DNA of 61,534 bases, filler included, from Squatina squatina (Eukaryota): assembly GCA_031763465.1 (NCBI GenBank). It is 3 parts of 3 records of this genome, joined end to end, with 100 filler letters (N's around TTAATTAATTAA, not from the genome) between each part and the next. Parts side by side here need not be neighbours in the genome. Positions count along the whole stretch, not along the records: positions 1 to 31,853 come from JARFOE010000233.1; 2 more parts are not named here. One strand, 5' to 3'. The translations under genes and the position numbers were made by a program. Below are positions 5,716 to 31,436 of this stretch, in pieces. How positions within the stretch are numbered: the stretch's first letter is position 1; every line of letters starts with the position of its first letter. The notes below the pieces were generated by a model. That model saw only the letters and a program-made list of their open reading frames with translations, ran no database searches and was not told the origin of the DNA.

Positions 5716-5799
5716 CTGAGTGAACAAAAAATGAATGTATGAATCAACAGCCACCAACATCTTGCAATTAAACAGCGCCTTTAACAAAGAATAAATGTT

Positions 5800-7478: not shown

Positions 7479-7592
7479 CTGTTTAAGATAAAGGAAAAAG
7501 CTAGAGTACTGTCCAGCCTCAGGCAGGTACGAGAGAAACACAGTTATACAGATGAGCAGTACAGTGGTGTCCTTCCCAACTTTCTTCAAGGA
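7479..7592 (-). CDS. MFSD14B: MFSD14B exon SLKKVGKDTTVLLICITVFLSYLPEAGQYSSFFLYLKQ
   Basis: 114 bp, phase 0/0, CAG/GT; near-identical to the MFSD14 family motif. Confidence 0.92.
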
Positions 7593-9281
7593 CTGTAACA
7601 AAAGAAACAAAATGCTCTTATGAATGGAGTCAGCTTTAAGTTGCTTATTCATATTATATTTTATAACCGATCAGAAGTCCACACCCTACAACTCTTGGAC
7701 CAGCATCCTGGAGTTTAATGGCACTGCACAAACATACCAAGTGACTTTTCAACTGTGCTGCCTTGTCAGCATTTTCAAGGGTTTGGATCATAATTATTTA
7801 CATCAAAGAGTGGCACATTTTAAAAAATGGCAGAAAGTAAAACTATTTTGTTATTTTACTGGTTCTCTCAGAGGTTTGAGAGACAGAGTCAAGTTCTGCA
7901 AATTAACACAGTCTCAAATTATAAAGGCCTGACTAAAAACACAAGTCATATAAACAAATNNNNNNNNNNNNNNNNNNNNNNNNNNNNNNNNNNNNNNNNN
8001 NNNNNNNNNNNNNNNNNNNNNNNNNNNNNNNNNNNNNNNNNNNNNNNNNNNNNNNNNNNCAGGACAAAATACCTAAATGCTCATGCAGGAGATTGCAGCA
8101 CACAAACTCAAAATAATTTGAAACTTCATATTATTCAAAAGTGAATGAATAACCATCACAGTCAGAAAGAAACATAATGTTCCCATAAATCTCTATTCAA
8201 GCACTGTCTTCTATGCATTAGTGGCTTGATTCCCTCCTCACTAAATTAGAAATAATTTGGAGAAAGTTTGGTCACAATATCAACATATGTGCACATGTAC
8301 ACATTCCAACAGGGACCACTGAATAGCAGTCAACGACATTAGTTTACCTTTTGTCTTTCCAGCCAAACACGCTGACATTGGCTGTTGCACCCCAGTTCCC
8401 TCAGAATTAGCAGCAAACTTGCAAGAGTTTGTTTCTATCTCATTTGCACAGAGGTGTAATTTCATTATAAAATATCATGGGCATTCCGGGAATTAGGAGT
8501 CATTCAGCTGAACCTAGCTCCGCAAATCATTTTCAGAATCTAAAGCAACCAGTGCCAGAGATTCTGCCATGAAGAGAGGGATGCTAGCAGAGCATCACAG
8601 ATATGGAGGCTCGGTGTACTCTCACAATATGTAGGGCAAATGATAGGCAGAGTCCTCTCTGGCACCAGCAGAGTGGAGTTTACATTGATGCAGTGCTTCC
8701 TGGAATAATTAACACCTTTAGGTATATTGGTGAACATCTCCCATAACCAGGAGGCTTCTAGCCCAAGTGCACTTCCAACATGGAAGTATTTATTGATGGC
8801 CTGCGGCTTGGGAAGACCATATGGAGAGATCAATGGATACAGGATTCAGATTTCTCCAGAGCAGCAGCTGAGAGGGCTTGGAAGATATCAGGGCTCAGGC
8901 TTATTAGTGATTTGAATTAGGTCATGTTCCCTGCAGACCAGCGAATCAGTCTCCTGACCTCACTTTAAGTGGCAGAGCAAGGCAGTGCTTGGTGCAGCCT
9001 GCTCACCCTCATCATGACAGTGACACAGGAGAGCTCTCAGAACAATCCCTTTGGATGCCTTCATGAGCGGCGGTTAGTCCGCAGACCCGGGCTGCTGAAT
9101 TTTCCAGTCCAGAGAAGCAGCCTGCCATTCCCAGACTTAGCGGATCTGAGAGGGAGTCCACCGCCGTTCCAAGAAGCTCATTCTAAAAGTACTCAGAGCC
9201 TCCCAAATCACAGGGCCCAGGCCATTAAGTGGCACTGGAAGAAACATAAGAATAGAGTATGAGAGGTTATAAAGACATATA

Positions 9282-9397
9282 AACAAAAAATGCTGGAAAA
9301 ACTCAGCAGGCCAGGCAGCATCTGCGGAGAGAAAAACAGAGTTAACGTCTCAGGTCGACGACAAAGGGCCTGCTGAGTTTTTCCAGCATTTTTTGTT
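9282..9397. repeat. Perfect 31-bp inverted repeat built from a Penelope-type terminal repeat
   Basis: AACAAAAAATGCTGGAAAAACTCAGCAGGCC (9282-9312) and its exact reverse complement (9367-9397). Same family motif recurs near 17690, 32390, 48285 and 54660. Confidence 0.85.
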
Positions 9398-9724
9398 AAT
9401 TGTTTACAACATTGTTTCCATTATTAAATTCTGTAACATTCTGCTCAATTACTGATATTCCCAAAAATGCAATGCAATCTGGACTAGTCCAACGAGCACT
9501 GCAAAATGAATCAATGTGTACGTGAAGGATGAAATACTGCTTCAGGAGTAGTTTGATGCAGACATCAGCCAGTATGCAAGATTGTCAAAGTTTGGCATTC
9601 GAGAGTTAAAGAATAAAAATAGACATGTACGAGCCTTTATATTAGGTATGGTTTGCTTAATACTACAGTAACAAGTTTTGCATTCTGGTAATTACAATCT
9701 ATGTACAGATCACTGCATGCTCAC

Positions 9725-9943
9725 CGAAAAAGGGTCCGCTTGCTCCCATGAAAAAGGTGATCCCCTTGAAGCTGGTCGAACCTTCTCAGGGAGAGATTCG
9801 GGCACAGCCACTACGATAAAGCAGATGTCCAATGCAGCAATCACAGTGGCTACAAGTACCACAAGGTTATCACCGTATTTACTTGAAAGATAAGCACCAA
9901 TGGCAGGACTGGTTACCAAACTTGCTGCAAAAGTTGCAGATAC
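9725..9943 (-). CDS. MFSD14B: MFSD14B exon VSATFAASLVTSPAIGAYL...VAVPESLPEK...SWEQADPFS
   Basis: 219 bp, TAG/GTGAG, phase 0/0. Confidence 0.92.
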
Positions 9944-10719
9944 CTAGAGAAAGAGCAAAAAAGAGGCAAGTTTTACTTACAAGATCATTAACAGTTAAAA
10001 GGTGAACATCTCCGAAAACAAAACAAGCAACCTATGAAGTAAACGCTATATAGACACATAGGGGATGAAATTATTCTAAGCCAGTGCAAACGGGCTCATA
10101 ACAAATTGGCTTCATAACTACTGTGCTGATTTTCTTTTCAAATGACTTCAATGGACAAAAAAAAAAATCAGACGCATTATAATATGGCCTGCTGATTCTC
10201 TTCGAGCCCATTACACACTACTAGCATAGACCAATTTCACCCCCATATTATTTTTGAACTTCTAAGTATTTTCTTACAGTTGGTCCGCCGAAGGGACAGG
10301 AGTGAAGAACCTGAATGTAATAAGTAACACTACTGTACACTCGATTGGGTCATCAATCCCACTACTCTCGTCTGACCAGTAAAGAAGTGTCCAGCTGTTA
10401 TGGAAATTGTCTCCAACTTACATATTCTAATAGAGAATTGGATCCAATTTAAACACTAGAACAAACTCAATAATCCTTTATTTGACACCGGAGGCAAAGA
10501 GGATTACAACTGGAGCCAAAATTCAGTCCAACTCGGCAAAATTGCTACCAGACTCAGAATAAAAAGCATCATTTTTAGGGGTTCATCGCACTCACTTTGT
10601 GGTGAAACTGACAGCAATTAGGAACAGACACCATAGAAACCCAATCTATGATGATTTTCATTTATTAGCCTCTACCTTTCCAAATACCATTTAATTTTGT
10701 CTCAAATTATCTTCTCTAG

Positions 10720-11319
10720 AAGTTTCCCCACCACCAACGTTCGGCTGACTGGCCTGTAGTTGCCGGGTTTATCCGTCTCCCCCTATTTAGGAGTGTAACA
10801 TTTTCAATCCTCCATTTCTCTGGCACCACTCCCATATTCAAGGAAGATTGTGGCCAGAGCCTCTGCGATTTCCACTCTTACTTCCCTCAGTAACCGAGGA
10901 TGCACCCCATTCGGGCCTCATGCCTTTTCTACTTTGAGGATTGCCTATCTTTTAAGTACCTCTTCTTTGTCTATTTTTATCCTATTCAATATCGCTATGG
11001 CTTCCTCCTTTACTGCTATATTTGCAGCATCCTCTTCACTAATGAAGACAGATACAAATTGCTCATTTAGAACCTCTGCCTCCACAAGAAATTTCCTTTT
11101 TGGTCCCTAATCGCCCCCACCCTTCCTTTGAAAACCCTTTTACTATTTACATGTTCAGTAAAGACTTTTGGGTTCCCTTTTATGTTAACTACTATTCTAT
11201 TCTCATACTCTCTCTTTGCCCCTCTTATTCCCTTTTTTAGACCTATTCTGTACTTTCTATATTCTGCTTTATTTTGAACCTTACAATTGTCAAAGGCCTC
11301 CTTTTTCTGTCTCATTTTA
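10720..11319 (-). mobile_element. CR1 LINE ORF2 fragment
   Basis: Translation KKGIRGAKREYEN..NIKGNPKVF...RVGAIRD, plus an NYRPVSLT-like segment near 10740-10765. Confidence 0.8.
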
Positions 11320-11429
11320 NNNNNNNNNNNNNNNNNNNNNNNNNNNNNNNNNNNNNNNNNNNNNNNNNNNNNNNNNNNNNNNNNNNNNNNNNNNNNNNNN
11401 NNNNNNNNNNNNNNNNNNNTCTTTATTAC

Positions 11430-11544
11430 CAGTACATACGCTGTACTTCTTTCATGCTCTTGAGTAATGTCAGCTACATATGCAAATATCACCGAGAAAG
11501 TGACTGCAAAAACTCCTGACACTGAAATAACAGCAAAATACCAC
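11430..11544 (-). CDS. MFSD14B: MFSD14B exon WYFAVISVSGVFAVTFSVIFAYVADITQEHERSTAYVL
   Basis: 115 bp, TAG/GTAAT, phase 2/0. Confidence 0.92.
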
Positions 11545-12437
11545 CTACATAAGCAAGCAGAAACAAGAGTAAAGAAAAGAGCATAACAAACTGCACCATC
11601 GATATAAATTAAAATTAGCATTTTTGCTTTGTTTCAAATCTTAGGATTTCTCATTACAAGCAAGTCTTTTGACTTTAGGGTGAAACCCAAGATTTATCCC
11701 TTGAAAATAATTTGAAAATTAGAGTTGAACCCAGAAACACAGACATTGGCATACTACAGTTGTTTTGTGGTACACCCAGCCAGATTTCCTATGTGCAGGG
11801 ATCACTTATCATCTTTTGACAGGTAGCATTAATGCTCAGCACTTCTTCAGCCAATTGTTTCCAGTACTGAATAGTTCAGTGGGAACGAAGCACTAAGGAT
11901 GCACATGAATTCATACTTTGTGAAGGCAGATGATCACTTTGATTATTTACTAAGTATTTTATTTGTTCCTTCCAAAATTGTTCTGCTGATTAAACCTGTT
12001 GTTTTCAGATTACAAAGATCTGGTTTTACTTTTGACCTGAAAAGGAAACATATTAGGTCACAGCTGATTGTATCAGATTTGACCTGAATTCAGGAAAAAG
12101 AAAAGATCTGGCAATCAGAAGGTCTATTTATAGGCTGAGCTTCAAAATTGTAATACTGTCCTCTCCTCCTTCCATCTTACCCCAAATGCTATGTTTAGTA
12201 ATACACTTTATCTCACTGCTTAATTATTCTATAACGCAGAGTATCTGGTCGCAATACCATCTGAGAAACAAAGCAAATTATTCCACACACAAATGTATTT
12301 TATTTCCAGGAGAGTTATTAACCCATTCTCTTGACCGTTTATAAAAGTAACACACGATAATCAAAATGTAACTTGAAAGTATTTTGTTGCACCTCTACCC
12401 CTCCTCTCAGCTGCCAGCTGTTTGCACGTGAACACTA

Positions 12438-13407: not shown

Positions 13408-14630
13408 CTAAAAAGAGACAAAACATAGAATTAGACCAAATTGCAACAGCACAGTCAATTTATACATTACTGCAATAAATACAGGCTGGTTTCATCACAC
13501 ATGACAAAGTTAAAATCTAATTCTCAGCTAACCGCCAAACTAGAGCTTTCAAAATTTAAGTAACAAAAATGGTTTCAATGATCGTCATTCTTTCACCTAG
13601 CTCTAGTGCTATAAATTGGTCTAACAACAGTAGTGGTAATGTAGGNNNNNNNNNNNNNNNNNNNNNNNNNNNNNNNNNNNNNNNNNNNNNNNNNNNNNNN
13701 NNNNNNNNNNNNNNNNNNNNNNNNNNNNNNNNNNNNNNNNNNNNNGCTGAGAACTGACAAAACTTCACTAAAAGATACACCTACCTGATTGGCTGGGGCC
13801 TCCCAAGTGACCTCTCCAGACTTGCCCGGGAATCTACAGAGCCCCGCTCTGAATCTCCAACTCGGGAGTCTCCAACTCGCAAGGTCACTTGGATCCAGGA
13901 CCCTTAGGTAAGTATGTAGAGATAATTGCAATCGGAGGCACCCGCACGCAGGAAGCCTCTGACCGCAATTTCAGGGCCAATGTGTTTCAGTTTTAGTAAA
14001 CAGTTCTCCCATTCACCTTATCAAGAGTTTATCTTGACTGAGTTGTCAATCAACCAAATCATTCAACTGGAGACAGGTAGAGGCCCAATACTTTAGTTAT
14101 CACTTGACTATAAACCTCAACAATGTTCTCAGAGTAGTTGGCCAGCCTAGTTACAATTCCTCAAATGGACAGCACCATTAACCTATCAACTATCTCACAG
14201 TTGCACAACTTATCGTGGTTGATGCAGTCATCTGATAAAGCATATCTGGTTTTGCCTCTGCTGAACCCTCATCAGCTATATGTCCCTGTACTTACTTTTC
14301 ATTTCACTGGAAACAAAACTGAAACCCACATCTCCAGCCTTCTGCCAGAAGCTTACTGAACAAGCAAAAGCTAACAGTTAATAAAAATAATTAACTCTTT
14401 CCTTACATCACTTCCACCAGTGCGTATTGGGAAATTACTGTCCATGATTTTCCACTCATTTCCCAATATGTACCTCCAGTGGGGGAGGTTCCTCCTGGCA
14501 GGGCAAACTCAGAAAATTGGCCCGAGTGAGCAAACCTGCTGTGGTACCCAGCTCTGTCCCCTACCTGCATTATAATTTGAGTCTCTCTCTTGTGAACGCG
14601 TTCATTAAAATTAACATTTGTTGTTTGTAG

Positions 14631-14703
14631 GCATGGCCATGCATTGGCAGTCGCTGGAAACATAGCATTCATATTTGGAGGCTGTTCTACTGTTAGTATG
14701 AAA
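14631..14703 (+). CDS. Kelch-repeat protein exon (R)HGHALAVAGNIAFIFGGCSTVSMK
   Basis: TTTGTAG/GTGAGT, 73 bp, phase 2/0; R.GH...FIFGG Kelch motif. Confidence 0.85.
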
Positions 14704-14949
14704 GTGAGTAATCATGTAAAGTTTTACTTTCATTTTTATTCAGTATATTTCAGGATATTGTAGATTTATAATATTTTTGCCATGATAATCTCTATGTGAC
14801 ACTGACCTCAGACATTCAATTATTTACACTAAGATATAAGTGGGTTTAAAGATTAGACACCCACCCCTTTTCTGACAGTTGCTTTTCCAAGCTGGCAGAT
14901 TGTTATATGAAAGAACTTGGGGACTTCTGATTGTCACTTGAAAACTTTA

Positions 14950-15628
14950 TAGACATCGATGGTGGGGCCTTCAGAAGAAAGGTGATGGGCATACAGACAG
15001 AAATGCTCGGTGCAACGGCAGGTCTGCCAGAGAGCCCCTTGTCAGTGTCAAGGAGCATGGAGGAGTCTGGCTCCAACATTGCACTGGACTTTGCGCAGTG
15101 CTGGAAGCGCATGATTTCCAGGATGAAAGTGATGGGTAACTCCATTAGCGCACTTGTGGACCCAACCATGATGCTAGGTGTAATGGGCGATGTTGCAGCT
15201 TCCATTGCAGCACAAGCGGAAGCGGCCCAACGTCTTGGTGCTGCAGTGGAAGCTCGGACTGCTTCCATGAAGTCTCAGCTTGCTGCCATGCAAGGTCAGA
15301 CTGATGCCATTGTGACTGGGTTTATGAGGGTGGAAAGGGTAGTCCAGCAATGTGTCCTCCAACAGATCGCTAGGAATGCTGAGGCGCTGCCCTGGGGAAG
15401 TGGCAGTGACTCCGATGAGCAAGGATCCATTGTCCTCTCTCATGATGACAGCATTCGTACTTCCATTACTTACACTCCGCCAGTGCCCCTGCAGCTGCCT
15501 GCCAACCAGCCCAGATGGCTGCCACCCATGCCAAGGTGGTGCAGTCCACAGCCGGGCCTTCTAGGCCCAGAGCTGCTCGAGGACGTCCTGCAAGGCCATC
15601 TGCGGTGTCCCCCATGGAACATCAGCAG
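14950..15628 (+). mobile_element. Harbinger ORF2-like C-terminal coding segment (Ala/Met-rich helical ORF running into a gap)
   Basis: GC-richer than its flanks, about 230 open codons, next to the Myb/SANT exon. Family assignment is from recalled resemblance only. Confidence 0.5.
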
Positions 15629-16279
15629 NNNNNNNNNNNNNNNNNNNNNNNNNNNNNNNNNNNNNNNNNNNNNNNNNNNNNNNNNNNNNNNNNNNNNNNN
15701 NNNNNNNNNNNNNNNNNNNNNNNNNNNNNNNNNNNNNNNNNNNNNNNNNNNNNNNNNNNNNNNNNNNNNNNNNNNNNNNNNNNNNNNNNNNNNNNNNNNN
15801 NNNNNNNNNNNNNNNNNNNNNNNNNNNNNNNNNNNNNNNNNNNNNNNNNNNNNNNNNNNNNNNNNNNNNNNNNNNNNNNNNNNNNNNNNNNNNNNNNNNN
15901 NNNNNNNNNNNNNNNNNNNNNNNNNNNNNNNNNNNNNNNNNNNNNNNNNNNNNNNNNNNNNNNNNNNNNNNNNNNNNNNNNNNNNNNNNNNNNNNNNNNN
16001 NNNNNNNNNNNNNNNNNNNNNNNNNNNNNNNNNNNNNNNNNNNNNNNNNNNNNNNNNNNNNNNNNNNNNNNNNNNNNNNNNNNNNNNNNNNNNNNNNNNN
16101 NNNNNNNNNNNNNNNNNNNNNNNNNNNNNNNNNNNNNNNNNNNNNNNNNNNNNNNNNNNNNNNNNNNNNNNNNNNNNNNNTATATTAAGAATGGGTAACA
16201 GTACCATTATGCACATGCTGAACATTCATTGGCTGCTGACATTAGTTACCATATGAGGGACTGCTGTATGCTATGTGAC

Positions 16280-17341
16280 TATATGAGATGTAATTCTGAC
16301 ACCAGGTTGTTGAGAGGTCCCCCTCTCTTTGTCCCCCACCGCCAACTGCTCCACAACTCCTGACACCTCCAGGGCGACCTCCACTACTGCTGTCAAAGTG
16401 GTGAAGAATGAAGTGTCACCTCCATCTTTCCCTCTCCCTGTTATTGTTCTCTTTTCCTTCAAGGAGGGAAAGAAGAGAAGTTTGAGTGAGAGTACTGGCA
16501 TGAGTGTAAAGAATGTGTGGGTTACATTTTTAGAGGGAAACTATGAGGGAGTGGAGTGCCAATGCAAAGTGCCCTCCTTGGGTGTTGTTTGTTGGAATGT
16601 TTGCATGAGAATAAGGGTGATTGTGAGGCATGGTTAGTCAGATGGGGATTTGAATATGTATATAAAGAGAATTGGGTGGACGTGCAAGCTATGTTGGTGT
16701 GGGTAATGATGTGCAGGAGTAGGCTTGGGAAGGCAGAGTGATGGGGNNNNNNNNNNATGTGATGACAGGCACAGCAGGATGAAGTTGAGTGTGGCTTTGC
16801 ACTCACCTTTCCTGATCTCATGAGGTCATTGAAGCACTTCTGGCACTGCGCCCAGGTCCTCCTCACCACATCCTTGCCGTTCAACTTCTCTGCAATTTGG
16901 GGCCAGGCTCTTTTAGTCTCCTGTGGAGGTCTCTTCAGCCCACCAGCAGGGAAGAGAACCTCCCTGCCTGCTCTGATTCCCTCAGCGAGAAAATGTAGGG
17001 AGTCATCTCAAAACCTGGATGCAGCCCACTGTCTCTGTGAAGCCATCTTTGCATGGCTGAGCAGTAAGCAGATGATGACATGTACTGCCTGCACACTCCT
17101 AAATAAACCATCAAATGAAGTGTGGCTAAGGCTGCTTTAAATATCTCTGCTGGAAGTGAGTCATCAATGGCGTCATCAGACCCGCGCCATTTAATAGGGC
17201 TTGGAAACACGCAGGTCTGCCTTAATAGGCGCCATGAATGGAAAGTCGCTCTGAGGAGCGGGATGATAAGAAGAACGGGGTTCAGACCCGCCATGCTGAC
17301 CGGTCACACCCGATCTGCTCAGGTAATGAAAATTCTGGCCA
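16280..17341 (-). mobile_element. PIF/Harbinger element 5' part: TIR, spliced Myb/SANT (NAIF1/MSANTD-like) exon 17046-16807 and a degraded second exon near 16460
   Basis: TIR TGGCCAGAATTTTC at 17341-17328. Translation MASQRQWAASRF*DDSLHFLAEGIRAGREVLFP...TKRAWPQIAEKLN..VVRRTWAQCQKCFNDL; one in-frame TGA at 17010-17008; GTGAGT donor. Confidence 0.8.
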
Positions 17342-17865
17342 TTGACTTTATACTTGACTACGTCAAACCAATGTACAGCATATAGATCCTCTTTCACCAA
17401 TATTGCCACTGCACCTCCTTTCTTATTTTTTCTATTCCTCCTTTTTAGCAGAGGCCACTGGATAGCAATTAGGAGCAGAGCCCCGATGTGATTTTTTTTC
17501 TTGCCCAAGCCCAGGGGTGCTGAAGCCTTCCTGGCTGAGACCTGCTATTGGTGGATTGAGTAAGAACAAGCACAATAAGTAGAAATAGCTTACTTTGGTT
17601 TATATATTCTGACAGAATATTGTAAGTTGATTGCTTTAGAAGTTTCAGTAAGCATATTTTTTTCTTAAATAAAAGCAAAAACTATAGGTGCTGGAAATCT
17701 GAAACACAATCAGAAAATGCTGAAAACAGTTAGCAGGTCAGTCAGTATCTGTGAAGAGAACAGATATGTTAACACCAGTAATTTCCAACACAAACCAATG
17801 ATGTGGGTATGTCACTACTGAAATGTCTGAATATAATTCTGGAACAATAATTTTGTGTTTGTTAG

Positions 17866-17908
17866 GATGAGGAGCCCAAATATTGTAGTGACTTCTACAT
17901 GCTTACAG
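17866..17908 (+). CDS. Kelch-repeat protein exon DEEPKYCSDFYMLT(V)
   Basis: TTGTTAG/GTATGT, 43 bp, phase 0/1; joins in frame to both neighbouring exons. Confidence 0.75.
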
Positions 17909-18886
17909 GTATGTGATTAGAGTAATGTTCTTTCGACTATTTAAGAGACATAAAATAATGAATGGTCTACTTAAGTCTACTGTTCCTTTATTATGTTTTA
18001 CTTCCGGGGATTCCTAGTTGCTACAAGACTTGTGTTATAGGATACAGGTTTGGTGCTGTAATTCCCCATATGGAATGTTCTCAATCTCAGTTGGGTCATC
18101 GTGGGGAGGCATTCCGTGGAGGTCAGGTGCCTCCTCCGTAGGTGACAAAGCGACATTGGTAGAGGCCTGCCAGCTGCTCATCTACCTGCTATCTTAGGCA
18201 GGATGTGAAGCTGAGAGAGAGAAAAAGGAAAATAAATACTTTACTTTACTGAAATATGTAAATCTTTCATTGTTCCAACCATTTTAATACAAAGGTTTCT
18301 GTGTGTTAATGTCATTTTATTTTCAAGTAATAGCAAGCAAAGTGACCTGCTGTAAAGCTATCAGGCCAAGATATAAATGGCTGACAATGAAGGTTAAAAA
18401 AAAACAAGTTGGTAAAGATAATACTTGGTGTGATACTGAGCCAACCAGAGCAGAATGGTTCCAGATTCATAGATCACAGTATCATAAAATAGTGCAGCAC
18501 AGAAAGAAACCATTCAGCCCATCGAGTCTGTTCCAGGTCTTTCAAAGAGCAATCCAGTAAGTCCCACTCCTCCGCTCTTTCCCCATATCCCTGCAATTTN
18601 NNNNNNNNNNNNNNNNNNNNNNNNNNNNNNNNNNNNNNNNNNNNNNNNNNNNNNNNNNNNNNNNNNNNNNNNNNNNNNNNNNNNNNNNNNNNNNNNNNNT
18701 ATTTTTTTAAAAACTCCTTTCAAATGAATCAAGAAAGTTGATATTATTGACTTTAAGTAAACACAATCAATGAGCCTGAACAGTTTTAATGTCATGATGT
18801 TCACAATAGCAAAGTGACTATTTCCATTTAAAAAAAATTACCTGTATTACAATATAATTTACTGATCCGTGTTTCCTTTATAACAG

Positions 18887-18965
18887 TAACTCCCTCTGAT
18901 TTGACGTGGGAAATAATACCACAAAGTGGATACATACCATCATCCAGAGAAGGGCACTCCATGTG
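18887..18965 (+). CDS. Kelch-repeat protein exon (V)TPSDLTWEIIPQSGYIPSSREGHSM(C)
   Basis: ACAG/GTAAGA, 79 bp, phase 1/2; W...G..PS.R.GHS Kelch motif. Confidence 0.87.
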
Positions 18966-19773
18966 GTAAGACAGAACTTAGGATCATTGGAGTGAGTAAA
19001 CGCCAAGACACTGGGGTGGATATCTGATTATACTGTTTATGTTTGCTGCTTTCAGAACATAAATGGCTGGAATAACAGTGAATGATGCTGCCATCAGCAA
19101 TTTTTAATCTTGTTGGTAGCAGTGGAAAAAATCTTCCCTCACTCTAGATGAGAGTGCATTGGACTAAAGTGGGATGGGTTGGTTTCACTTCCCAAATGGC
19201 ATTTGATTTGTTTCTCCCGTTTTCTGTAGTGTCATTTCCTAGTGATAGGGACAGGGTCAGTTAGAGGCTGGTTTAGTTCCATCCCTCAGTGGAGCAGGAG
19301 TCAAGCTATCTGTTGTGAAAATAATTGGTGAGATCAAAGCGAAAGAAAGCCAGAGTTAGTTTCCTGCAATATCCACTGGCGGCAGCAANNNNNNNNNNNN
19401 NNNNNNNNNNNNNNNNNNNNNNNNNNNNNNNNNNNNNNNNNNNNNNNNNNNNNNNNNNNNNNNNNNNNNNNNNNNNNNNNNNNNNNNNAGGATGGGCTAA
19501 ATGGCCTCTTTCTGTGCTGTAGATTTCTGTTTCTGTAGTGTGTGATGCAAATAATTTATTTTCATTCATTAGTCAATAAATATCCCTTTATTGTTTCAGT
19601 AACTTTGACTTGGAGCCAGTGTGAGGTCAAAGGTGAAGGACCATCTGGCAGGGGATGCCATACCTTCACATCACACCATGATAAGGTAGATTTAAAGTTG
19701 TGCTGTATTTTTCTATATAATTAACTAAATTATTAAAAATGTAAAATTACAGTGACAATATTGTTAAATACAG

Positions 19774-19855
19774 GATATCTATGTATTTGGCGGATCATAT
19801 AATGACCAGGGGGGCAGCATAACAACGTTAAATGATGTTGCGAAAGTGAGCCTTG
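19774..19855 (+). CDS. Kelch-repeat protein exon DIYVFGGSYNDQGGSITTLNDVAKVSL
   Basis: TACAG/GTAAGT, 82 bp; IYVFGG...LND motif. Confidence 0.87.
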
Positions 19856-22484
19856 GTAAGTACCTTGTTGGTATGGGTTATGAATATTTATTGTAATTTA
19901 TTATAAATGCTGTTTCAGGGTGTAAGAACATTTCTTTGAGAGAAAATTTTTTTATTTTAACAGTTTGAACTGCTTGAAGGCAGCCTACTGTTACAGCATG
20001 CTAGAATGTAATGTCGTGGAGCAATGGGATGTGAATTTACCCCTTTGATTCCCCATGTGGAAAGTTCATGATTTCACTTAAACTGTTTAGGGGAAAAAGT
20101 GCTGAATGCAGACAATGCTATTCCACAGAGGGTGGGGAAAGCAGCACGTTTATGTGGCCTCCAAAATGCAGGTCAAAGGTGGATATCACCAGATATTTAC
20201 CTCATGCTCAGAACCAAGGACCATCCCTTGTAAACGAGCCTTTGCTACTTACGAACCAAAATATGACCCTTGGTACAGAATATTTGATATTGGTGAATTG
20301 CCAAACAAGATTTTTTTTAAAAAATTGCATTTAGCTTACTGGAGGTGGCGTGAGCCCATTGTGATTTCCTAAGCTTCAGAAAGTTACAGAGTAAACATTC
20401 CATCAGAACATAGTTTGAACTATAAACTACAGGACAGGTTTGCCAAAAAATCACAGGCAGCCACAAGTGAAGACTTTGCAACTTGCTGATTTACACAACA
20501 TCTAATTATCGCTCCCTTAGGTACAAAAATAATAATTATGCTGATAATCTTGCACCTGAACCAACATTGTAATGTAAATCTTATAAGTGAGATTTTGTCT
20601 ATTCAAACATGGAGTCTCCCTGTACAAACCTTACACGAGCTGCAGTTCAATGGTATGCAAAGAACTGATGAACTGGGAACAGGTTATATAAAAACAAGTT
20701 GAAATTTGGCCTCAGGGGAAACAGAAAGTAACTCTATTGCTGAACCAAGCTTATCAAATTATATGCTTCCTGAAATCCACTCCAGACTATTTGCATTTGT
20801 TGCCAAGAACTGTAACTTGATCAAATTTTATGACAAAATATGTGGGTGCTGAAATTGGGTCCCGCCGGCATNNNNNNNNNNNNNNNNNNNNNNNNNNNNN
20901 NNNNNNNNNNNNNNNNNNNNNNNNNNNNNNNNNNNNNNNNNNNNNNNNNNNNNNNNNNNNNNNNNNNNNNNTGACCTACAGATCAAGAAGGTCCAAACTT
21001 TGATCCTAGGTGTATGCTGGTTATTTGATCACAGCAGGAACATCAGTAAGAGAGCTACAATTGGCCTTGGCACCCCTGGGTTAGGGAGGGGAAAAAAGTC
21101 GGAGTTTGCCAGCTCCTGATCCAGTGACCCCTCCTGGAAAGGACAGGTGTGTGGCTGAAGAGAGATTCAAGCTTCATTCTGATATCCTTCATGTTCAGAA
21201 TAGTCTGCTGACACTCACCGTCCAGACACACACATGAAGAATAGCCACATGACATTCAGGAGGTTTGCTGCCATTCTTGGAACCATGTACCAGCATGAAT
21301 CATGCTTTCATGAGGCAAGGCAAGGAATCTGAGAAAAAAATGGAAAACAATAAACTTGATCTTCAGCAGTTTTAAAGAGTGCCTAATTGTGCTTTTACAT
21401 ATGTGCCTCTGGCTGACCTACAGTGACTTTAATGAAATAATTAAAAATGTAATGATACTTTAACAAAAAACATAGCACCCCCATAGCTAAATAAATTGTC
21501 ATTTTAGCAAATTCAGACCAAGTGAAATTGATATGTTAGTGCATGCTTTTGTGGTTAGTCTCTGTTTTTGTGCTGCCTTAGCCTTTTCATTTAACAAATG
21601 CACTGCCTGGATTAAGAAATCTGCTCCTTAATTCACATTTATTTTTCTTTAAAACAACTTTGTGGCCCTTTCTCTTGCAAGCCTGCTAGAATTATGATTG
21701 ACTGCACACTGGCTGGGAGACAGTTAACTATCTATCTCACCAGGGAAAGTACTGTTCCCAATTCCTGGTGTAGTTGTAGTCCTTACAGGTTAACAGGTGT
21801 TGCTGGATATGCTATGTTCAGATCCTTATGGATTCTGAGATCAACAGTTAATTGGCTTTGACAACACAAGATTGAGCCTCTGCACTAGCTTGAGGGGCAT
21901 TGGGATTACTTGTTTNNNNNNNNNNGTCGGTGCTTTGTGGGTTGTTAGTCCCGTGGTCTTTTCCCTTGGAACAGATGTCTCTCACAGACAGCCCTAAGTA
22001 CCATGGTGAATTGACAGATGGCACTCTGCTGTAAGCATCAGCTTATGGTTTATATAGCAGTATGAGGACCTCCACTGAGAAATTTCTGCTCTGAATGTGA
22101 CAGGGACTGCACTGTTAAATCAGGAGCAAAGTACTTGGTAGCAACGGTTTAGTGGCTAATTTACTCAAAAATTGAAAAATGGTTAAAAAAAATAATTTTA
22201 GTCAGTGAGTAAAACAAAAGCAGCATAACTCACTGAGCACAACGAAGTCAAGTAGTTTTCAAATTAAATACAAGCAAAAGAACACTACAAATACTAGAAC
22301 TCTGAAAGAAAAAACAAAATAATGCTGTAAATAGGGAGCAACTCAGTCAGAATCTAAAAAGAAATAGGTTTTGTGTTTAGCCCCAGCATTTTCGCTTTTT
22401 ATTTAGGATTAAATATACTTACGTTAACTACCATCATCGTGTTAAATATAGAATTGAAGGAAAAAAAAACACCATTTTTTTCAG

Positions 22485-22572
22485 CTTTACATTTTCGGTG
22501 GAGTCAATGAAGAGCAAGAATTTAATGACATAAAGGCAATGAAGTTAATAAATCCGTCTGACAGACAACCAA
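22485..22572 (+). CDS. Kelch-repeat protein exon LYIFGGVNEEQEFNDIKAMKLINPSDRQP
   Basis: T-tract + CAG/GTAAGT, 88 bp; LYIFGG...FND motif. Confidence 0.87.
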
Positions 22573-23577
22573 GTAAGTCTCATGGTTCCAGTAAGAACTC
22601 GTAAAAATGTTATGTGGTAATATTATGAAATTGCGCTCCCAGCACAAAGCTTTGCTCACCAGGAATTCAAGAGCACACAACCGAATTTCCCACATGCACT
22701 ACTGCTGGGCAAGGTTCCCCGCCATGGGGTCAATTTTCTAAAATGACCTCTTATATGCCATGATAAATAAAAAGATTCAAATCACTAAATTAAGTGGAAA
22801 GGCACATTGATTTTATTAGTGGTATAATTCTCAATGAAATAGTGATAATTGACACATAAGCCCTGAAATTGTGAGACACTGCTCCCAGCTTGGAGACTTG
22901 CTCAACAGGACTGCAGATCATAGTAATGAGGGTAGAAGTCAGTATGTCTGATTCACAGGGTTCCTGATTAATGCCCAGAAAATTGGGAGGTATGCTGACC
23001 TCCATGCGCTTCTGAGAGCCGAGACACCACAACAGGAGGAGAGTCTTACAATTTTCGGGCTGCTTTCTTGCCAACCTAATCCTAAAATCTCTGGGCTGAG
23101 GTAAGTGGAGTCTGTTGCTATGGAAAGAGAGTGCACGCTCCATATTGGGGAAACAGAAACTCTTACCTGTATGGATTTCTCAGTCACTTGGTTTGGAGAC
23201 TCTTAAGCTGCATTAGACAACTAGCTGACCAGAAAAAAACACCTCACCCAAAGGTTCAGTGGATAAATGTTCCACATTGTGTGGCACTAATACATTCAAT
23301 TTTCCTATGTTTGGTACCTTTGCTTTGTGCGGAATAAGCTAATCTCCCACTGGGCACATAGCAATTGACCTCCGTGTCACTCGGTTAGGGAGGGCTAAGG
23401 ATTCACTGAGTTTCCATGCTGATGGTTGCTTCTCTATGGATGCAAGGTGAGGACAGGGTTAGGATCATCTGCAATGACCTTTCATGGTGAATAGCCTGTT
23501 GACATTCAACATTTAAATTCATACATGAAGCATTCTACTTGGGGGAGTTACCAAGTATACATGAAGCACTAAATTTT

Positions 23578-24740
23578 AAGGCGCGAAATTGGAGTCAGTT
23601 TAAATGGGCGCTAATGCGGGAGCGCTGGAAACGCGGCACTGGGCATAAAATGGACTGTCTGACGTTATCAGAGGTGACACCCAGAATGAACGTTATTTTG
23701 GGTGCAATCTTAATGTCTGTGAGGCCTCACCATTTTTATTGCAAAAAGCTCCGTTTTGAGATGTGATAATGCCTTGGATTCATTGTGTGGGACTTGGAAC
23801 TGCCATTTTGAAGATTTTGTCTGCTTTCGGCTGACCAATTGACAGCAATGGGTCTATTCGGCCATGGGGGCCATCACTAATGTTGGAGTGGGTGTGGACG
23901 TGCAGGGATGGCATCCTTTTGCAGCAGAGAGAGATGATCTCAGAACAAGATGATACCAGGCAGCATGTTGGAACAGTTGGTCATCATCANNNNNNNNNNN
24001 NNNNNNNNNNNNNNNNNNNNNNNNNNNNNNNNNNNNNNNNNNNNNNNNNNNNNNNNNNNNNNNNNNNNNNNNNNNNNNNNNNNNNNNNNGGTATTGCCCC
24101 GGTCGGGGCGTTAACTTTTGTGAAGCTGGAAGTTTAGCACCAGGCGCTAATCAATCTCGCTGCCTGCTAAATTCAGCCTCAGTGCTCAAAGAATGCAGAG
24201 GAGTGCTAAATCAGACACTAATGGCAGAGGTGAGTGGCGTTAGGCTCCAAGCAACAACAAATAGGAGGTGTTGTGTAATCGGGAGTGAGCATTGTTGAAG
24301 GTGCCTTCCAGCCATTAAGGGGGAGGGTTACTGGAGTCTGCACACCAACCCCCAATGATTCAGGGAGTGCAGAACGGCGATATACAATGGGATGAAATGC
24401 GAAGTCCTTTGACGACCTGCTACACTCCGGGGATTAAGGAGCCTTTATTTGGCTGCAGATACATCGTGTGCTCTCTGTCACTCATAACTGACCTTTGGAC
24501 CGGAAGCTCCTTGACAGCTGAGTAGCGCCCGCCAGCCGCCAGCCGGCTGGTTCATGCCTCCGCTCCCTGGTGCTGTCGGCGTGAGGCAGCAAAGCGTGAG
24601 GCGCTACTGAAGTGTCTTCTTTACTGCACACTCGCTGGCGTCACGATCTGCATGGCGAGAGGTGCTGAGGCGCTAAGTGCTTTCGGCGGCACTACAAAGC
24701 CGGCGAATTTGCTCCGCCGCGGTGCTACTGCCTGATTTTT
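23578..24740. mobile_element. Cluster of GC-rich Harbinger-like DNA transposon fragments/MITEs
   Basis: Termini such as GGCGCGAAATTG, GCTAAATTCAGCC and GCGAATTTGCTCC; degraded IVEGAFQPLRGR near 24291-24326 resembles the Harbinger transposase VERAFGxLKxR motif. Confidence 0.45.
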
Positions 24741-25074
24741 CCCCGAATAATTGCTCCAATTCCAGTCAAACTTATTGGTCTTCGTACAGTGAGTTTTTTC
24801 AGTTGTTGTCAAGTTTGCTAACCCCATGAGGAGGAGGGAGAGAATAGGGTAGAAACATTATAGGCTGTAAAACCAAAAAATGTAGATAATTAAAGGTGCG
24901 TTGTCACCCTTCTACTTGTTCTAGGGGATGGAATCCCCTAATTTTAAACACAACTGGCAGCCCAAGTGAGATCACAAACTCACCTGATGTGAAATGATCC
25001 AAGACATTAAAGTCAAAGTCTGCAAATATAGTAAAAACTTAATGACCGTTGTTTTTTTAAAAATGTATTTGTAG

Positions 25075-25175
25075 GCAACAGAATCCCGGGATTTGAGTGC
25101 CATTTACAAGCAATCTATGGAAATGATCACAAATGCTTTCGCTATGCTGGACATTGAGTTTCAAAAACTGGATAA
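25075..25175 (+). CDS. Probable downstream helical/coiled-coil exon of the Kelch gene ATESRDLSAIYKQSMEMITNAFAMLDIEFQKLD
   Basis: TTTGTAG/GTATGT, 101 bp open frame, amphipathic pattern, same strand. Linkage to the Kelch exons is inferred. Confidence 0.65.
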
Positions 25176-25553
25176 GTATGTTATGTCAATGTTACTTTAA
25201 ATATCATTGGTGCTAATGGAAACATTGTAGTAATAGATTGAAATGAAATATAGTTTATCATTTTCTTTTCAATAACTAAAATATTCACTGTACTTTTGAA
25301 AATACATGCACAGAGATGTAAGGAGAAAATAAACACCAAGCGAAAGGAGCACATATTAGGATGGGTGACCAAAAGCTTGGTCGAAGTGATGGGTTTTAAG
25401 AAGGGTCTTAAAGGAGGAGAAAGAGGTGGAGAGTTTGAGGGGTTTACCATTTTNNNNNNNNNNNNNNNNNNNNNNNNNNNNNNNNNNNNNNNNNNNNNNN
25501 NNNNNNNNNNNNNNNNNNNNNNNNNNNNNNNNNNNNNNNNNNNNNNNNNNNNN

Positions 25554-26907
25554 AGGCATTCAGCCCCTCAAGCCTGCTCTGCCATTCAATAAGATTATGG
25601 CTGATCTTCTACCTCAACTCCACTTTCCTGCACTATTCCCAAATCCTATGATTCCCTTAATATCTACAAATCTATCGATCTCTGTCCTAAATATAGTCAA
25701 CGGCTGAGCATCTACAGACCTCTGGGATAGAGAATTCCAAAGATTCACCACCCTCTGAGTGAAAAAATTTCTCCTCAGTCCTAAATGGCCAACCCCTTAT
25801 TCTGAGACTGTGACTCCTGGTTCTAGACCCCAAGTGTGGTCTCACCAGGACCCTATATAATTGCAGTAAAACATCTTTACTCTCATACTCAAATCCTCTT
25901 GTAAAAAAGGCCAACATACCATTTGCTTTCTTAATTGCTTGCTGTACCTACAGGTTAACTTCTACGTGATTTGTGTACAAGGACATCCAGGTCCCTCTGA
26001 ACACCAACATTTCCCAATCTCTCGCCATTTAAAAAAGTACCCTGCTTTTCTATTTTTCCTACCAAAGTGGGTAACTTCACATTTCTCCACATTTGCCATG
26101 TTCTTGCCCACTCACTTAGTCTGTCTATAGTCCCTTGAAACCTCTTTTCATCCTCCTCACAACATACATCCCCNNNNNNNNNNNNNNNNNNNNNNNNNNN
26201 NNNNNNNNNNNNNNNNNNNNNNNNNNNNNNNNNNNNNNNNNNNNNNNNNNNNNNNNNNNNNNNNNNNNNNNNNATTTTTTTTCTATGTCCCGAATTGCAG
26301 GGCTTAAAGGGGCAGCGCCGAAACCGGAACTTTGCACGCAACAATTCGTCGATTAGCGCCAGTAACCCAGGGAGGTCGAATTGGTCATCCCTTTACTCTT
26401 ATAATCAAATCCTCTTGTAATAAAGGCCAACATACCATTTGCTTTCTTAATTGCTTGCTGTACCTACATGTTAACTTTTAGTGATTCGTGTACAAGGACA
26501 CCCAGGTCTCTCTGAACACTAACATTCTGTGTTCCAAAAAGAACAGTCCTAACTTTTCCAACCTCTCCTCATAACTCCCTCATCCCTGGTAACATCCTGG
26601 TAAACCTCCTCTGTACCCTTTTCTAAAACGTTTAGATCTTCCTGAATTGTGGTGTCCAAAATTGTCCACAATACTCCAGCTGAGGCCGAACCAGCGATTT
26701 ATAAAGTTCGAGTATGTTTACAAGTTTTGTGTCATCTGCAGACTTACAAATTATGACCTGTATATCCAAGTCCAAGTCATTCATATATATCAGTGGGGAA
26801 CACCACTGTGTACTTCCCTCCAATCTGATGAACAATCGTTCACCACTACTCTCTTCTTTCTGTCCCTTAGCCAATTTCAGTGCCACTGCCCCTCTAATTC
26901 TGTGGGC
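25554..26907 (-). mobile_element. CR1 LINE RT/3' fragments (several, with a gap and an intervening MITE piece)
   Basis: LQLYRVLVRPHL, YMNDLD..SADDTKL, LELYKSLVRPQLEYC motifs. Confidence 0.85.
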
Positions 26908-27084
26908 NNNNNNNNNNNNNNNNNNNNNNNNNNNNNNNNNNNNNNNNNNNNNNNNNNNNNNNNNNNNNNNNNNNNNNNNNNNNNNNNNNNNNNNNNNNNN
27001 NNNNNNNCTCGCACATTGAGAATCAAATCTAGGATCTTCTTCATCACAACATTGGATGGGACTTGTACCTACTAAAGAAAGAAT

Positions 27085-27492
27085 GTTCAATGTGTACATC
27101 ATCAGGATGTCTCAAAGTGCTTTACAACCAATGAAGTACTTTTTGAAATGTAGCCACTGTTGTAAAGTAGGGAAACGCGACAAGCAATTTGCAACAGCAG
27201 ATTCCACAGAAAACAATGTGATTAATGACCAGATAAACTGTTCAGTGATGTTGGTTGAGGGAGAAATGTTGTCCAGGACATCGGGAGAGCTAACCTGGTC
27301 TTCAAATAGTGCCATTGGGATCTTTTACATGCACCTGAGAGGGCTGACATGGCCTCAATTTAACGTCTCCTTCAAAAGTGTCACCTCTGACAATGTAGCA
27401 CTTCTCAAAAATGCACTGGTGAATCAGTCTAGATTATTTGCTTAAGTCTCAAGTGGAAGCGAAAGTGCTACCACTGAGCCAAGGCTGACACT
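27085..27492 (-). mobile_element. tRNA-headed SINE, Deu/SacSINE-like
   Basis: A-box TGGCTCAGTGG (27481-27471) and body TTACAACAGTGGCTACATTTCAAAAAGTACTTCATTGGTTGTAAAGCACTTTG. Related copies near 57700-57985 and 59848-60130. Confidence 0.7.
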
Positions 27493-29918
27493 AGGTTATC
27501 AGTGATGCACATTAAGAATTCTATTCTAACTCTAAGAACAGACTCCAATTTATTCAGAATTTGTTCTTGGACTGTATAAGTTACTTTCTTAAAAACTACT
27601 GATCCTAGTCTTAGCCAGCTGCTAGTATAGTCCGTTCATGTTTTCTTATATTTGTTTTCTGGCTTGGGTGGGTGAGGCTATTACTTTGTCTTGTAGCGTT
27701 ATATAATGTTGAATATAGTGTTATTCATGCCTGAAAGACAGTTGAGACAGATGTGGTGGGAACAAATGGATACTGAGGAGGAAGGAAGAACAAGTCAATG
27801 GAATTAGGGAAGGGGCTAAAATAACTGCTTTTGAAACCAGGAATGGAGGCGGTGAGGTGGAAAGATTTCAGGAGGGAGTCTGAGGGCAGGATTGTGGTGG
27901 ATGAATGAACAGCCACCAAAAATGGAATGTGGAGGATGGCAAACGAGGAGTTAGACCAGTGTCGGAGAAGGATGTGAGCAGGGGTATATCCTGAAAATGG
28001 AGTACGTTGGGGGTGAGAGGCAGTTGAAAGGAAGGGAAAGGATGTTGAAATTGACATGCAGGGTCACAGGGAGCAGTTGGGTTGGTGGAATTATGAAGCT
28101 ATGAAAGGATAAGGACATGATGAGCCGTACTTTTCTTGATTAGTTGCAATTTATGGAGGGTGGAAGTGGGGAGACCAGCTTGGGAAGCAGTAGAGAAATA
28201 GAGCATGAGGTGACAAAGACATTGAATAGAGTCTCAGCAGCAGTGATGAGTTGGCAATTGAGGCTAGTTCTAACGTTAATATTGACATGTGTAGTGCAAG
28301 ATGGACAAATGTGCTGTATGTACTTAGCTTGCTAAGGATGGCTGAGTTTATTACCCTTTTCTCATCCTTTTTATATCAAATATTCTGGAATTTGTAACTG
28401 TTATGTCTGACCAATGTGGATTTCAGTGCCATTCAGTTAACACCGGCAATGTAATCCTCTCTCTGATTTGAAAGCTGTTAAAGTCAGCTGCCTTCTACAG
28501 GCCTGCAGACTGTGCAGTGTTGCAAATATATTGGGGTGGGTTCTGCCCATTTTCTATATTAGCAGTGACAACTTTGGATAGATCTTGTCTTGCACAGATA
28601 CTACAATTAGAGTCTGTGATTTTTTTTTTTCCATTGGTGGAGTCCACAGATTATGTGTAAATAGTTTGAGCAGATAAAGCATGGTGGCGATATGTTGCCT
28701 TTATTTCCTGCTTCTGGATTGTTTGTCTGCAGCTTACTCTCTCTGCACTAGGCTGCATGGCCAAATTCCAGAGTTGGGTTGGTAGAGCTTTATACAAGCT
28801 GTGAAANNNNNNNNNNNNNNNNNNNNNNNNNNNNNNNNNNNNNNNNNNNNNNNNNNNNNNNNNNNNNNNNNNNNNNNNNNNNNNNNNNNNNNNNNNNNNN
28901 NNNNNNCTAAGTATGGGCCCATTAGCGCTGAAATTAGCATGTTTTTTTTTTAAGCTGTTTGAGAGATTTTTTCCAAAGTGTTGAAAAGCCAGACTTAGGC
29001 CTAAAATTCTAAGAGCTGAACTTTGCGCCCAACTATTCTTCTGTTAGCGCCAGAAACTTAGGGCAATCGAATTGGGCGCCCTTGATGTTTACACTAATCT
29101 TGGGTGAGCAAGAAGGAAAAATGCAGGCACAGTAAAAAATGCCTGTTCCCTGGGTGCAAAGGTTAGGGAAAAGGGGCCACACCCACTTTATGGTGTGCTG
29201 GGATTCCCGGGGCTTCTCCTGAGGGGTGGAGTAGGACATGCGCCTACAATTGGCACAGATCGAACATATTTGTGTAAGTAAAGCAGGCGGGGCTCTCCTG
29301 GCCTTCAGCCTCAATTTTCTGGAACTGTGGCTCGGGGACACCCCCAAGAAGGGTCTGAGGGCACCTGGTAGTAAACCAAAGAAGACCCTAGAGGTGGGTC
29401 AGTGTATATTTTTTCAGTTCCAACCAAATCTTCAGGCTGTGGGGCCTTCTGGCTTTAAGAATATTGGAAAAATAGTAATGAAAAATGTAATTATAAGAAA
29501 TATTAAGTTAGGCATAGTGGCTATCAATAGTGGTTAATACAGTTGTATTTCAGTAGTATTTCCTACCATTGAACCAAACTGGCACTTTAAGGCAAAATGA
29601 TTGATGAGGCTAATTGAATTTTGTATACAAAAGAAATAATACGGATAAGAGACTTGGGAAATATTTACTTACATGTAGAATTTGTTTAGTTAAGTTTTGT
29701 CAAGCAGATGTGATTTCCAAGGAATAGTTACATTTATGTATTTTTTTTTAAACAGGCCTATTGGATCTCTGTGCATTCAGCCTGGTTCCACGTAACTCTT
29801 AATGCTCGTGCTGGATGCTACCACAGCAGTTGTCTGCATTGCTTGGGGCTCCCTACATCACACTGTAGGCATCACTTTAGCTTTACCTTACCAAAAGCTG
29901 TGCAACCTATCCAGATGA

Positions 29919-29973
29919 ATGAAGACCCCATTTGGGAAACGATCCAGTCAGAGGTTGTCGATTGATGCAGCAG
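29919..29973 (+). CDS. SPIN1: Spindlin first coding exon MKTPFGKRSSQRLSIDAA(G); exon with 5'UTR probably starts at 29756
   Basis: MKTPFGK N-terminus of SPIN1; CAG/GTAAG donor; T-tract acceptor ending at 29755. Paralogue identity uncertain. Confidence 0.85.
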
Positions 29974-30814
29974 GTAAGGACTTTTAAAGCTGAAGAATGC
30001 ATTTGCTTGATTTGGTCTGCGCTCCCAACAGTTTCTGGAATTGCAATAAAAATATTTGGTGCTGTAGATGATAAACCTACACTGCTTCCTTTGTTCTGGA
30101 TTCCCCCTCAGAGGAACTAGTTTCTCTGTGTCTACCATATCGAATCCCTTGATAATTTTAAACACCTTGATTAGTGCTCCCCTCAACCTTCTAAACTCAA
30201 GGGAATCTACACNNNNNNNNNNNNNNNNNNNNNNNNNNNNNNNNNNNNNNNNNNNNNNNNNNNNNNNNNNNNNNNNNNNNNNNNNNNNNNNNNNNNNNNN
30301 NNNNNNNNNNNNCGGTCGCAGGCACAGGACAAGCATCTTTACCGGCCCCTGGCAACCACAGAGGAAACCTGTTGCCAATGTCAGTGGCGTCGCGGGGCAG
30401 GCTGCCTCCAACACTTGAGGCAGCGCCCTCGCAGCGTGCAGAGGAGTCGGCGTGCGATGTTATGACATTGCGCGTCCGACACCAGCGCCAACTGCGTCTT
30501 GGCGGTGGGGCCTCTACACTGCCGGGGTGCCATGCCCAATAAACCATTTTTCAATTTTTTGCCGCAATGCTGATTTTATGCCCGGGTAGTGCCGCTAATC
30601 GGTGCTACCTGACGTGAAATCACACCAGTTGGGGCCCCCAGCTGTTTTGGAAGAAGTAGCTAAATTGCCTGCATAATGTTTTTATGCACTGTTGCACTTT
30701 TTACTTCTATTTGCACCACAAGTTAACCATCTATTCTGTGGCCATGTGTGAAAGACGTATTTTGATTTTCCACTCTTGCTTAACATTTCTAAGGTATATG
30801 TTCCTCTTGTACAG

Positions 30815-31065
30815 GAAACACCGTAGTAATGTGGGACCAAGCAAGACAGTATCTCATTCACGACGGAACATTGTGGGTTGCAGAATTGAGCATGGATGGA
30901 AAGAACAAGGTGGAATAACGCAGTGGAAAGGAACAGTTCTGGATCAAGTTCCAGTAAATCCTGCACTTTATCTTATCAAATATGATGGATTTGACTGCGT
31001 ATATGGACTTGAACTTCACAAAGACGAAAGGGTCTTAGGATTTCGGGTCCTTCCGGATCGAGTTT
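30815..31065 (+). CDS. SPIN1: Spindlin exon encoding Spin/Ssty (Tudor-like) domain 1
   Basis: ACAG/GTGAGT, 251 bp; [47 protein letters not shown]. Confidence 0.93.
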
Positions 31066-31199
31066 GTGAGTGAAAATATGGTTTTAAGATTACTAATGAC
31101 TCAAGTTTACATTATGCTAAAAAAGGATATTTTGTGTTGTATATTACTAATTACATAACAAAATTACTAAATATTGTATGCATTTTGCTTTGCTTTTAG

Positions 31200-31436
31200 C
31201 TGCCTGTCGAATCAGTGATGTGGATCTGGCAGAAATGATGATAGGCAAAGCAGTTGAGCACATGTTTGAAAAAGATGATGATGGGGCTAAAGATGAATGG
31301 CGGGGAATGGTGCTTGCACGTGCTCCAATCATGAATACGTGGTTTTATATCACCTATGAAAAGGATCCTGTCTTGTACATGTACCAGCTTCTTGAAGATT
31401 ACAAAGAAGGAGATTTACGTATTATGCCAGACTCGA
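31200..31436 (+). CDS. SPIN1: Spindlin exon encoding Tudor-like domain 2 (H3K4me3-reader cage)
   Basis: TTAG/GTAAGT, 237 bp; [43 protein letters not shown]. Confidence 0.93.

Follow-up and report, generated by a model that had tools for sequence, protein, structure and literature searches.

Kelch propellers followed by a coiled coil are known from the yeast proteins Kel1, Kel2 and Tea1. Kel1, in which six kelch repeats are combined with a coiled coil, is a partner of Kel2 and plays a role in cell shape, morphology and cell fusion (PMC2132843). Tea1 requires its coiled coil for retention at cell ends (PMC2173414). The hallmarks of the C-degron receptors KLHDC1/2/3/10 are a BC-box that follows blade 6 and an R/F-S-R carboxylate anchor (PMC11568203). 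Here we describe a Kelch plus coiled-coil gene in a stretch of 61,534 nucleotides (the window, three parts of three records joined with filler) from the Squatina squatina assembly GCA_031763465.1. Judged on its sequence, this gene is the orthologue of zebrafish zmp:0000001301. We slightly favor the view that the conserved 507-residue protein acts as a two-headed scaffold that holds its partners together and does not deliver them for degradation.

Seven coding exons of the gene are visible in the window (Table 1). They encode 180 residues, about 36% of the protein, and 165 of these (92%) are identical to P0009, a 507-residue protein of Heptranchias perlo. The first-pass annotation, made from the DNA of the window, had listed six of the seven. 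At the coordinates it gave, each of the six has an open frame flanked by AG and GT, and the in-phase joining of the first three was borne out. The peptide it had spliced from them was partly right: its final Cys does not lie within the third exon, which ends in TG, but is present in shark relatives. The list was incomplete, an additional exon that joins the one at 19774 in phase having been found by a splice-site scan. With shark proteins as tblastn queries, five of the six exons were recovered at E values of 1e-11 to 1e-25; the 43-nucleotide exon reached only 0.1-1, yet its order and phase were correct. The exon at 22485 with its flanking codons, used as a query, retrieved ten proteins of sharks, rays and lizards, all belonging to one family, and these proteins matched the seven exons only, in order, when compared with the window. 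The identities point to a cartilaginous fish as the origin of the window. The shark and ray models P0009, P0004, P0006, P0008 and P0011 read through the donor that ends the exon at 14703, and P0005 and other vertebrates agree with the join seen in the window; the former database models may be mis-spliced at residues 44-50.

The zmp:0000001301 family also includes XENTR_v10001847, PTSG_05386 of Salpingoeca and CAOG_03617. Identity between the window gene and this family was high and collinear over propeller and tail, and length, order of parts and the spindlin neighbour were the same, with no difference seen. The family is annotated in well over 100 protein clusters, most commonly as RABEPK, but also as ACBP4/6, KLHDC3, Tea1, HCF1, LZTR1 and others. 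Because its members are labelled after so many different families, we consider these names borrowed. A main-text search by name, locus identifiers and topics, which did not cover most subscription journals or supplements, returned no paper on the family. The Capsaspora and Salpingoeca gene identifiers were not found in the supplements of PMC3870316, PMC11934334, PMC10530576 and PMC4877666, some of which may use other identifiers. PMC12035522 gives an account of the KLHDC members in humans in which no coiled coil is mentioned. The proposal of a real, uncharacterised Kelch and coiled-coil gene is therefore upheld, since its exons match a conserved family for which we found no paper, and no human counterpart turned up among the matches listed. 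The description of the gene as hidden applies to the open reading frame track only; it is present in databases and therefore not hidden there. What appears to be new is the picture at the level of the family, with a pre-animal origin, a homologous tail predicted to dimerize, a lack of ligase signatures and a likely double loss.

The age of the family had not been foreseen. A profile search of 1.84 billion representatives was evaluated on the best 150 of 54,398 matches, 29 of the 150 being looked up by name. Full-length relatives among these best 150 came from Acropora, Oscarella, Sycon, Salpingoeca rosetta, Chromosphaera perkinsii, Ciona, Capsaspora owczarzaki and two hemichordates. The full architecture, homologous tail included, was found from unicellular holozoans through sponges, coral, Ciona and hemichordates to vertebrates up to turtles and lizards, and the sequences indicate that the family is older than animals. 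No fungal member occurred among the named matches. Because coiled coils yield false likeness, the tail was tested with a profile of vertebrate sequences only. Eleven of twelve non-vertebrate tails scored 25-69 bits (the twelfth 2.9), and the controls, 240 shuffles, 18 reversed sequences and 114 other Kelch proteins, all stayed at or below 5.7 bits. Shark and Capsaspora proteins aligned blade by blade from residue 1, with a tail E value of 6e-18 and a gap-free coil. A midpoint-rooted tree of the propeller, from which 8 of 50 rows with a Kelch region above 400 residues were dropped and whose deep order is unlike the species tree, placed all 25 labelled family rows and an unlabelled one (P0217) on one branch (99/76), with KLHDC3 outside. 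The echinoderm proteins P0141, P0142, P0144 and P0150 have kept the family propeller and have lost or replaced the coiled coil; those of sea urchins have long acidic tails.

At the other end of the range, the family seems to have disappeared from several amniotes. With the shark tail as query, the 120 matches listed of 182 came from cartilaginous and ray-finned fish, lungfish, coelacanth, amphibians, turtles and squamates. A turtle query, with 120 of 204 matches listed and reaching down to about 58% identity, gave 6 turtle and 16 squamate rows and, among those listed, no bird, crocodilian or mammal; the one row without a name belonged to a frog cluster. Among the representatives with the tail that we looked up, those with a name came from fish, reptiles, invertebrates or protists. 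As the closest kin of turtles, birds and crocodilians would be expected near the top of the turtle ranking. We thus regard the loss in mammals, suggested by the first-pass annotation, as very likely, and a loss in birds and crocodilians, to which it appears to extend, as likely. Two independent losses, one in mammals and one in the bird-crocodile line, are the likely history, although a fast-evolving, short or unannotated copy could be among the unlisted matches.

AlphaFold2 models of P0009 from alignments of 41 and of 130 sequences agreed on the layout, with a mean predicted local distance difference test score (pLDDT) of 84 and 89, respectively. They consist of a six-bladed Kelch propeller over residues 1-322, which begins at residue 1-8, a short helix (325-338), a loose linker (343-382) and a single helix of 124 residues (383-506). 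The linker stayed below a pLDDT of 50 even with the deeper alignment, and docking of its motif onto the propeller was not seen in the deeper-alignment model. When residues 325-507 were modelled in two copies, the prediction was a parallel, in-register coiled coil over residues 383-504, about 18 nm long, with a score of 0.57, the best of three controls being 0.00; the runs shared at least 55% of contacts at a pLDDT of at least 69. In microbes, the mark set for this score was reached for 21 of 30 solved pairs and none of 23 single chains; in eukaryotes, it was reached for 17 of 29 pairs (7/16 in animals; 1/7 where no older relative had been solved) and none of 30 single chains. The prediction supports, rather than shows, a homodimer of the tail. 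Inside the coil interface lies a polar core stretch, formed by H447, N451, W454, N462 and E465, each of which is kept in 109 of 109 vertebrate rows. The tail alone gave no usable match in the ESM Atlas, and a tail-only fragment in Pfam gave weak generic coiled-coil matches, all below the cut-off. A reading of the protein as an SxIP microtubule tip tracker, a type marked by a conserved S/T-x-I/L-P motif in a loose basic region, was weakened; T-x-I-P occurred in 66 and T-x-V-P in 73 of 140 vertebrate rows, and the motif was not kept at that place in most non-vertebrates.

Fold searches with residues 2-348 gave tied best matches to KLHDC3 (Z 39.1, root-mean-square deviation (rmsd) 4.5, 323 aligned) and LZTR1 (Z 38.8, rmsd 2.3, 303 aligned), at 20-25% identity. 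KLHDC1/2/3/10 share a six-bladed propeller of the same subtype with the family and are its best fold matches, with 21-26% identity. The first-pass annotation had leaned towards a substrate adaptor from the repeat pattern of the exons, and our data did not confirm this. A BC-box consensus pattern, which detected two of four KLHDC3 controls, was absent from all 140 vertebrate rows and from all 12 non-vertebrate tails. The R/F-S-R anchor was found in 0 of 130 rows, at the alignment position and in all six blades, in a search that detected the KLHDC3 control and used KLHDC3 spacing, KLHDC10 having a variant geometry. Pfam scans of three full-length members (P0009, P0004 and P0012) revealed no BTB domain, and the tail of the family is one long helix; the structure prediction proposed as a check gave the propeller and this helix. 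Unlike KLHDC1/2/3/10, the family protein carries the 124-residue coiled coil in place of BC-box and anchor, and unlike LZTR1 and the KLHL and KBTBD adaptors of cullin-3 RING ligases it is devoid of a BTB domain, its identity to LZTR1 being 18-20% in fold alignments.

A cullin-RING substrate receptor of the KLHDC2/3/10 kind, attached through a degenerate or new link, is a distinctly unlikely alternative given these missing signatures. The KLHDC3 fold alignment does reach model residue 348, past helix 325-338, which occupies the position of the KLHDC3 BC-box and is the best-kept part of the protein in vertebrates, with a column identity of 0.90; this site and its strong conservation leave a small probability for a new kind of ligase link. 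The profile alignment to KLHDC3, however, halted at the end of the propeller, and the helix segment was absent or unalignable in the sponge, choanoflagellate and Capsaspora rows.

The main rival to the scaffold is a small-GTPase effector or membrane tether, in which the propeller or the dimeric coil would bind a GTPase of the Rab or Ras type. Two-fold coiled coils are common Rab-binding sites. LZTR1 is the best sequence match among solved structures (phmmer E 2e-37), the top matches being LZTR1 propellers bound to RIT1, KRAS and MRAS. RABEPK, whose propeller subtype is common with the family, is a Rab9 effector (PMC12035522), and 'Rab9 effector with kelch motifs' is a database name of family members. 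This name, however, is one of many borrowed labels. P0256, which we take to be RABEPK-like, matched the family in several shifted registers, at 28-34%; it lacks a matching tail and lay outside the family branch, on a long branch. We consider a GTPase effector unlikely. Plant Kelch proteins of the ACBP4/5 type, the source of the 'acyl-CoA-binding' labels, came closest among other clusters in language-model features (0.85, no more than a lead), but unlike them the family proteins have no N-terminal acyl-CoA-binding domain; none was detected by Pfam in P0009, P0004 or P0012.

A structural protein of cilia, axonemes or centrioles is a further alternative. The propeller matched the Kelch domain of outer-arm dynein alpha at E 9e-30, and also a flagellar protein, a SAS-6-like gene lies nearby in the window and most carriers of the gene are ciliated. 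The dynein match was nevertheless weaker than those to LZTR1 and KLHDC3, and no mammal or bird was among the matches listed, though both have motile cilia. The full protein is present in Capsaspora, an organism devoid of flagella in which 29 of 117 flagellar genes have been retained (PMC3753549). Because this flagellum-less organism carries the gene, we hold a purely ciliary role to be very unlikely.

The two-headed scaffold is preferred because a propeller without ligase signatures is combined with a loose linker and a long parallel coil. In this mechanism, the long C-terminal helix would pair with that of a second copy, giving a dimer with two propeller heads, each of which may bind a peptide or protein partner. 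The polar stretch of the coil and the linker motif P-T-x-x-P-x-V-x-Y might serve as second docking sites. Such a dimer would cluster cytoplasmic partners or bridge them, with the cortex of the cell or the cytoskeleton as the most likely site if the analogy with yeast Kel1 and Tea1 holds. These proteins, as far as the cited reports describe them, share with the family six kelch repeats followed by a coiled coil and are scaffolds that pair and are not ligases. Kel1, Kel2 and Tea1 are also much longer proteins. A weak hint that fits the scaffold comes from Salpingoeca, where PTSG_05386 is expressed and belongs to a set of 480 genes, out of 11,629, that are given as higher in colonies; the paper links this set to septins and cytokinesis (PMC4054682).

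Several points weigh against this scaffold. Its placement at the cortex or cytoskeleton is drawn from analogy only; the likeness to Kel1 and Tea1 is one of architecture, which would speak for the same working principle and not for membership in one family. The colony change of PTSG_05386 was small (log2 fold 0.82, P 0.10 against attached cells; PMC4054682). Long helices pair readily in such models, and the protein modelled was P0009 and not that of the window, in two copies only. The family branch at 99/76 was not starred. In echinoderm members and in Macrostomum the propeller is retained and a matching tail is missing, so that the coil is dispensable there. About 64% of the coding sequence is out of sight in the window, and the losses are read from the matches listed, 62 of 182 and 84 of 204 lying outside. 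A more specific version is tentative and, in our opinion, rather improbable: a pre-animal scaffold, the holozoan counterpart of Kel1 and Tea1 in cell shape, division or cell-cell contact, would have persisted in lineages ranging from Capsaspora and choanoflagellates up to sharks, frogs, turtles and lizards, with separate losses in mammals and in birds plus crocodiles. It would have escaped notice because human, mouse and chicken lack it.

As to the copy in the window, residues 1-21, 87-216, 273-301, 331-376 and 410-507 did not outscore shuffled queries in the intervals expected to contain them. Every one of these intervals contains at least one run of N (Table 1). Most gaps here are 100 N long, a size that usually marks unknown length. 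The visible exons had no stop and no frameshift. An alignment of 41 vertebrate rows has 71 columns that are conserved in 90% of them; the window departed at two of these columns, and the 41 relatives at 0-10, with a median of 2. Because gaps occur in every missing interval, departures equal the median and the neighbouring genes miss exons likewise, the gene reads as intact and the assembly as gapped. A decaying pseudogene, its other exons deleted rather than hidden in gaps, would account for the fact that only 180 of about 507 residues are visible; against the intact frames and splice sites and the position of each missing part in a gap-bearing interval, we consider it highly improbable. A unique stretch at 13746-13907 (+), with a strong donor at 13907 right after the gap and a phase fitting exon 1, reads unlike residues 1-21 and was not counted.

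The first-pass annotation had placed the gene head-to-head with MFSD14B and upstream of spindlin, and the orientations of both neighbours were borne out. The Kelch gene is divergent from a gene for an MFS transporter, the first exons of both being out of sight; a promoter common to the two, if any, would fall in the gap at 13646-13745. The transporter is presumably of the MFSD14 type. Its tail looks more like MFSD14B, whereas human SASS6 adjoins MFSD14A, and the gene may be either of the two. No further exons of the SAS-6-like gene were visible before the 3' end of the transporter; if the latter is MFSD14B, genome duplication may have given rise to the SAS-6-like gene as a second copy of SASS6. 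Downstream of the Kelch gene, on the same strand, Spin-Ssty and Spindlin-1 matches identify a spindlin gene. In one other genome, that of a sturgeon, the gene model P0139 fuses the Kelch gene to the last Tudor repeat of spindlin, and the Kelch-spindlin order is therefore common to at least one bony fish. Within introns of the Kelch gene lie a stop-free frame of 232 codons at 14931-15626 (+), which ends at an N gap and probably stems from a mobile element, and a CpG-rich stretch at 24500-24790, single copy in the window and with a possible donor near 24789, which could be a repeat or the first exon of spindlin. Frames at 33193-34537, 43264-43848, 45868-46326 and 51728-52531 resemble, by eye, fragments of reverse transcriptase of the long interspersed nuclear element (LINE) type.

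Table 1. Exons of the Kelch gene, gaps presumed to hold its missing parts and neighbouring genes in the window.
Feature	Position	Strand	Remarks
Coding exon	14631..14703	+	residues 22-45, Kelch blade 1; 23/24 residues as in P0009; tblastn E 1e-13
Coding exon, 43 nucleotides	17866..17908	+	about residues 46-60; 10/14 residues as in P0009, 11/14 as in P0005; phase fits both neighbours
Coding exon	18887..18965	+	residues 62-86, blade 1 to 2; 24/25 residues as in P0009
Coding exon, additional	19600..19685	+	residues 218-245, blade 4 to 5, family motif HHDKD; 27/28 residues as in P0009; AG/GT ends
Coding exon	19774..19855	+	residues 246-272, blade 5; 24/27 residues as in P0009
Coding exon	22485..22572	+	residues 302-330, blade 6 and beginning of post-propeller helix; 28/29 residues as in P0009
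Coding exon	25075..25175	+	residues 377-409, start of long C-terminal coiled coil; 29/33 residues as in P0009
N gap	13646..13745		presumably exon 1, encoding residues 1-21, along with the 5' exons of the MFS transporter; sole gap in 11600-14631
N gap	19389..19488		presumably residues 87-216; sole gap in 18965-19600; flanking phases do not join directly
N gap	20872..20971		presumably residues 273-301; alternative, 10-base gap at 21916
N gap	23990..24089		presumably residues 331-376; sole gap in 22572-25075
Stretch with four gaps	25454..28906		presumably residues 410-507 and 3' end
MFS transporter, visible exons	5509..11600	-	two exons match MFS_1 at E 0.002, below Pfam cut-off; divergent from Kelch gene
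Spindlin, visible coding exons	29919..31436	+	Spin-Ssty E 7.5e-26, 1.9e-23; Spindlin-1 best PDB match, E 9e-53
SAS-6-like gene, two exons	22-213, 523-717	+	second exon E 4.9e-25 to PDB 6z26; tail to tail with MFS transporter

In conclusion, we could attribute the exons in the window to a family on which no paper was found and whose database names point to the wrong families. The surprise is moderate because the gene is annotated in other genomes and scaffolds of Kelch repeats and coiled coils are already known. Equal length and a gap-free coil from the unicellular relatives of animals to reptiles probably reflect a basic cellular job, and the presence of the family in zebrafish, Xenopus, Salpingoeca and Capsaspora offers systems in which it can be tested. 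If the double loss is true, the family would be a clean case for what mammals and birds gave up or replaced.

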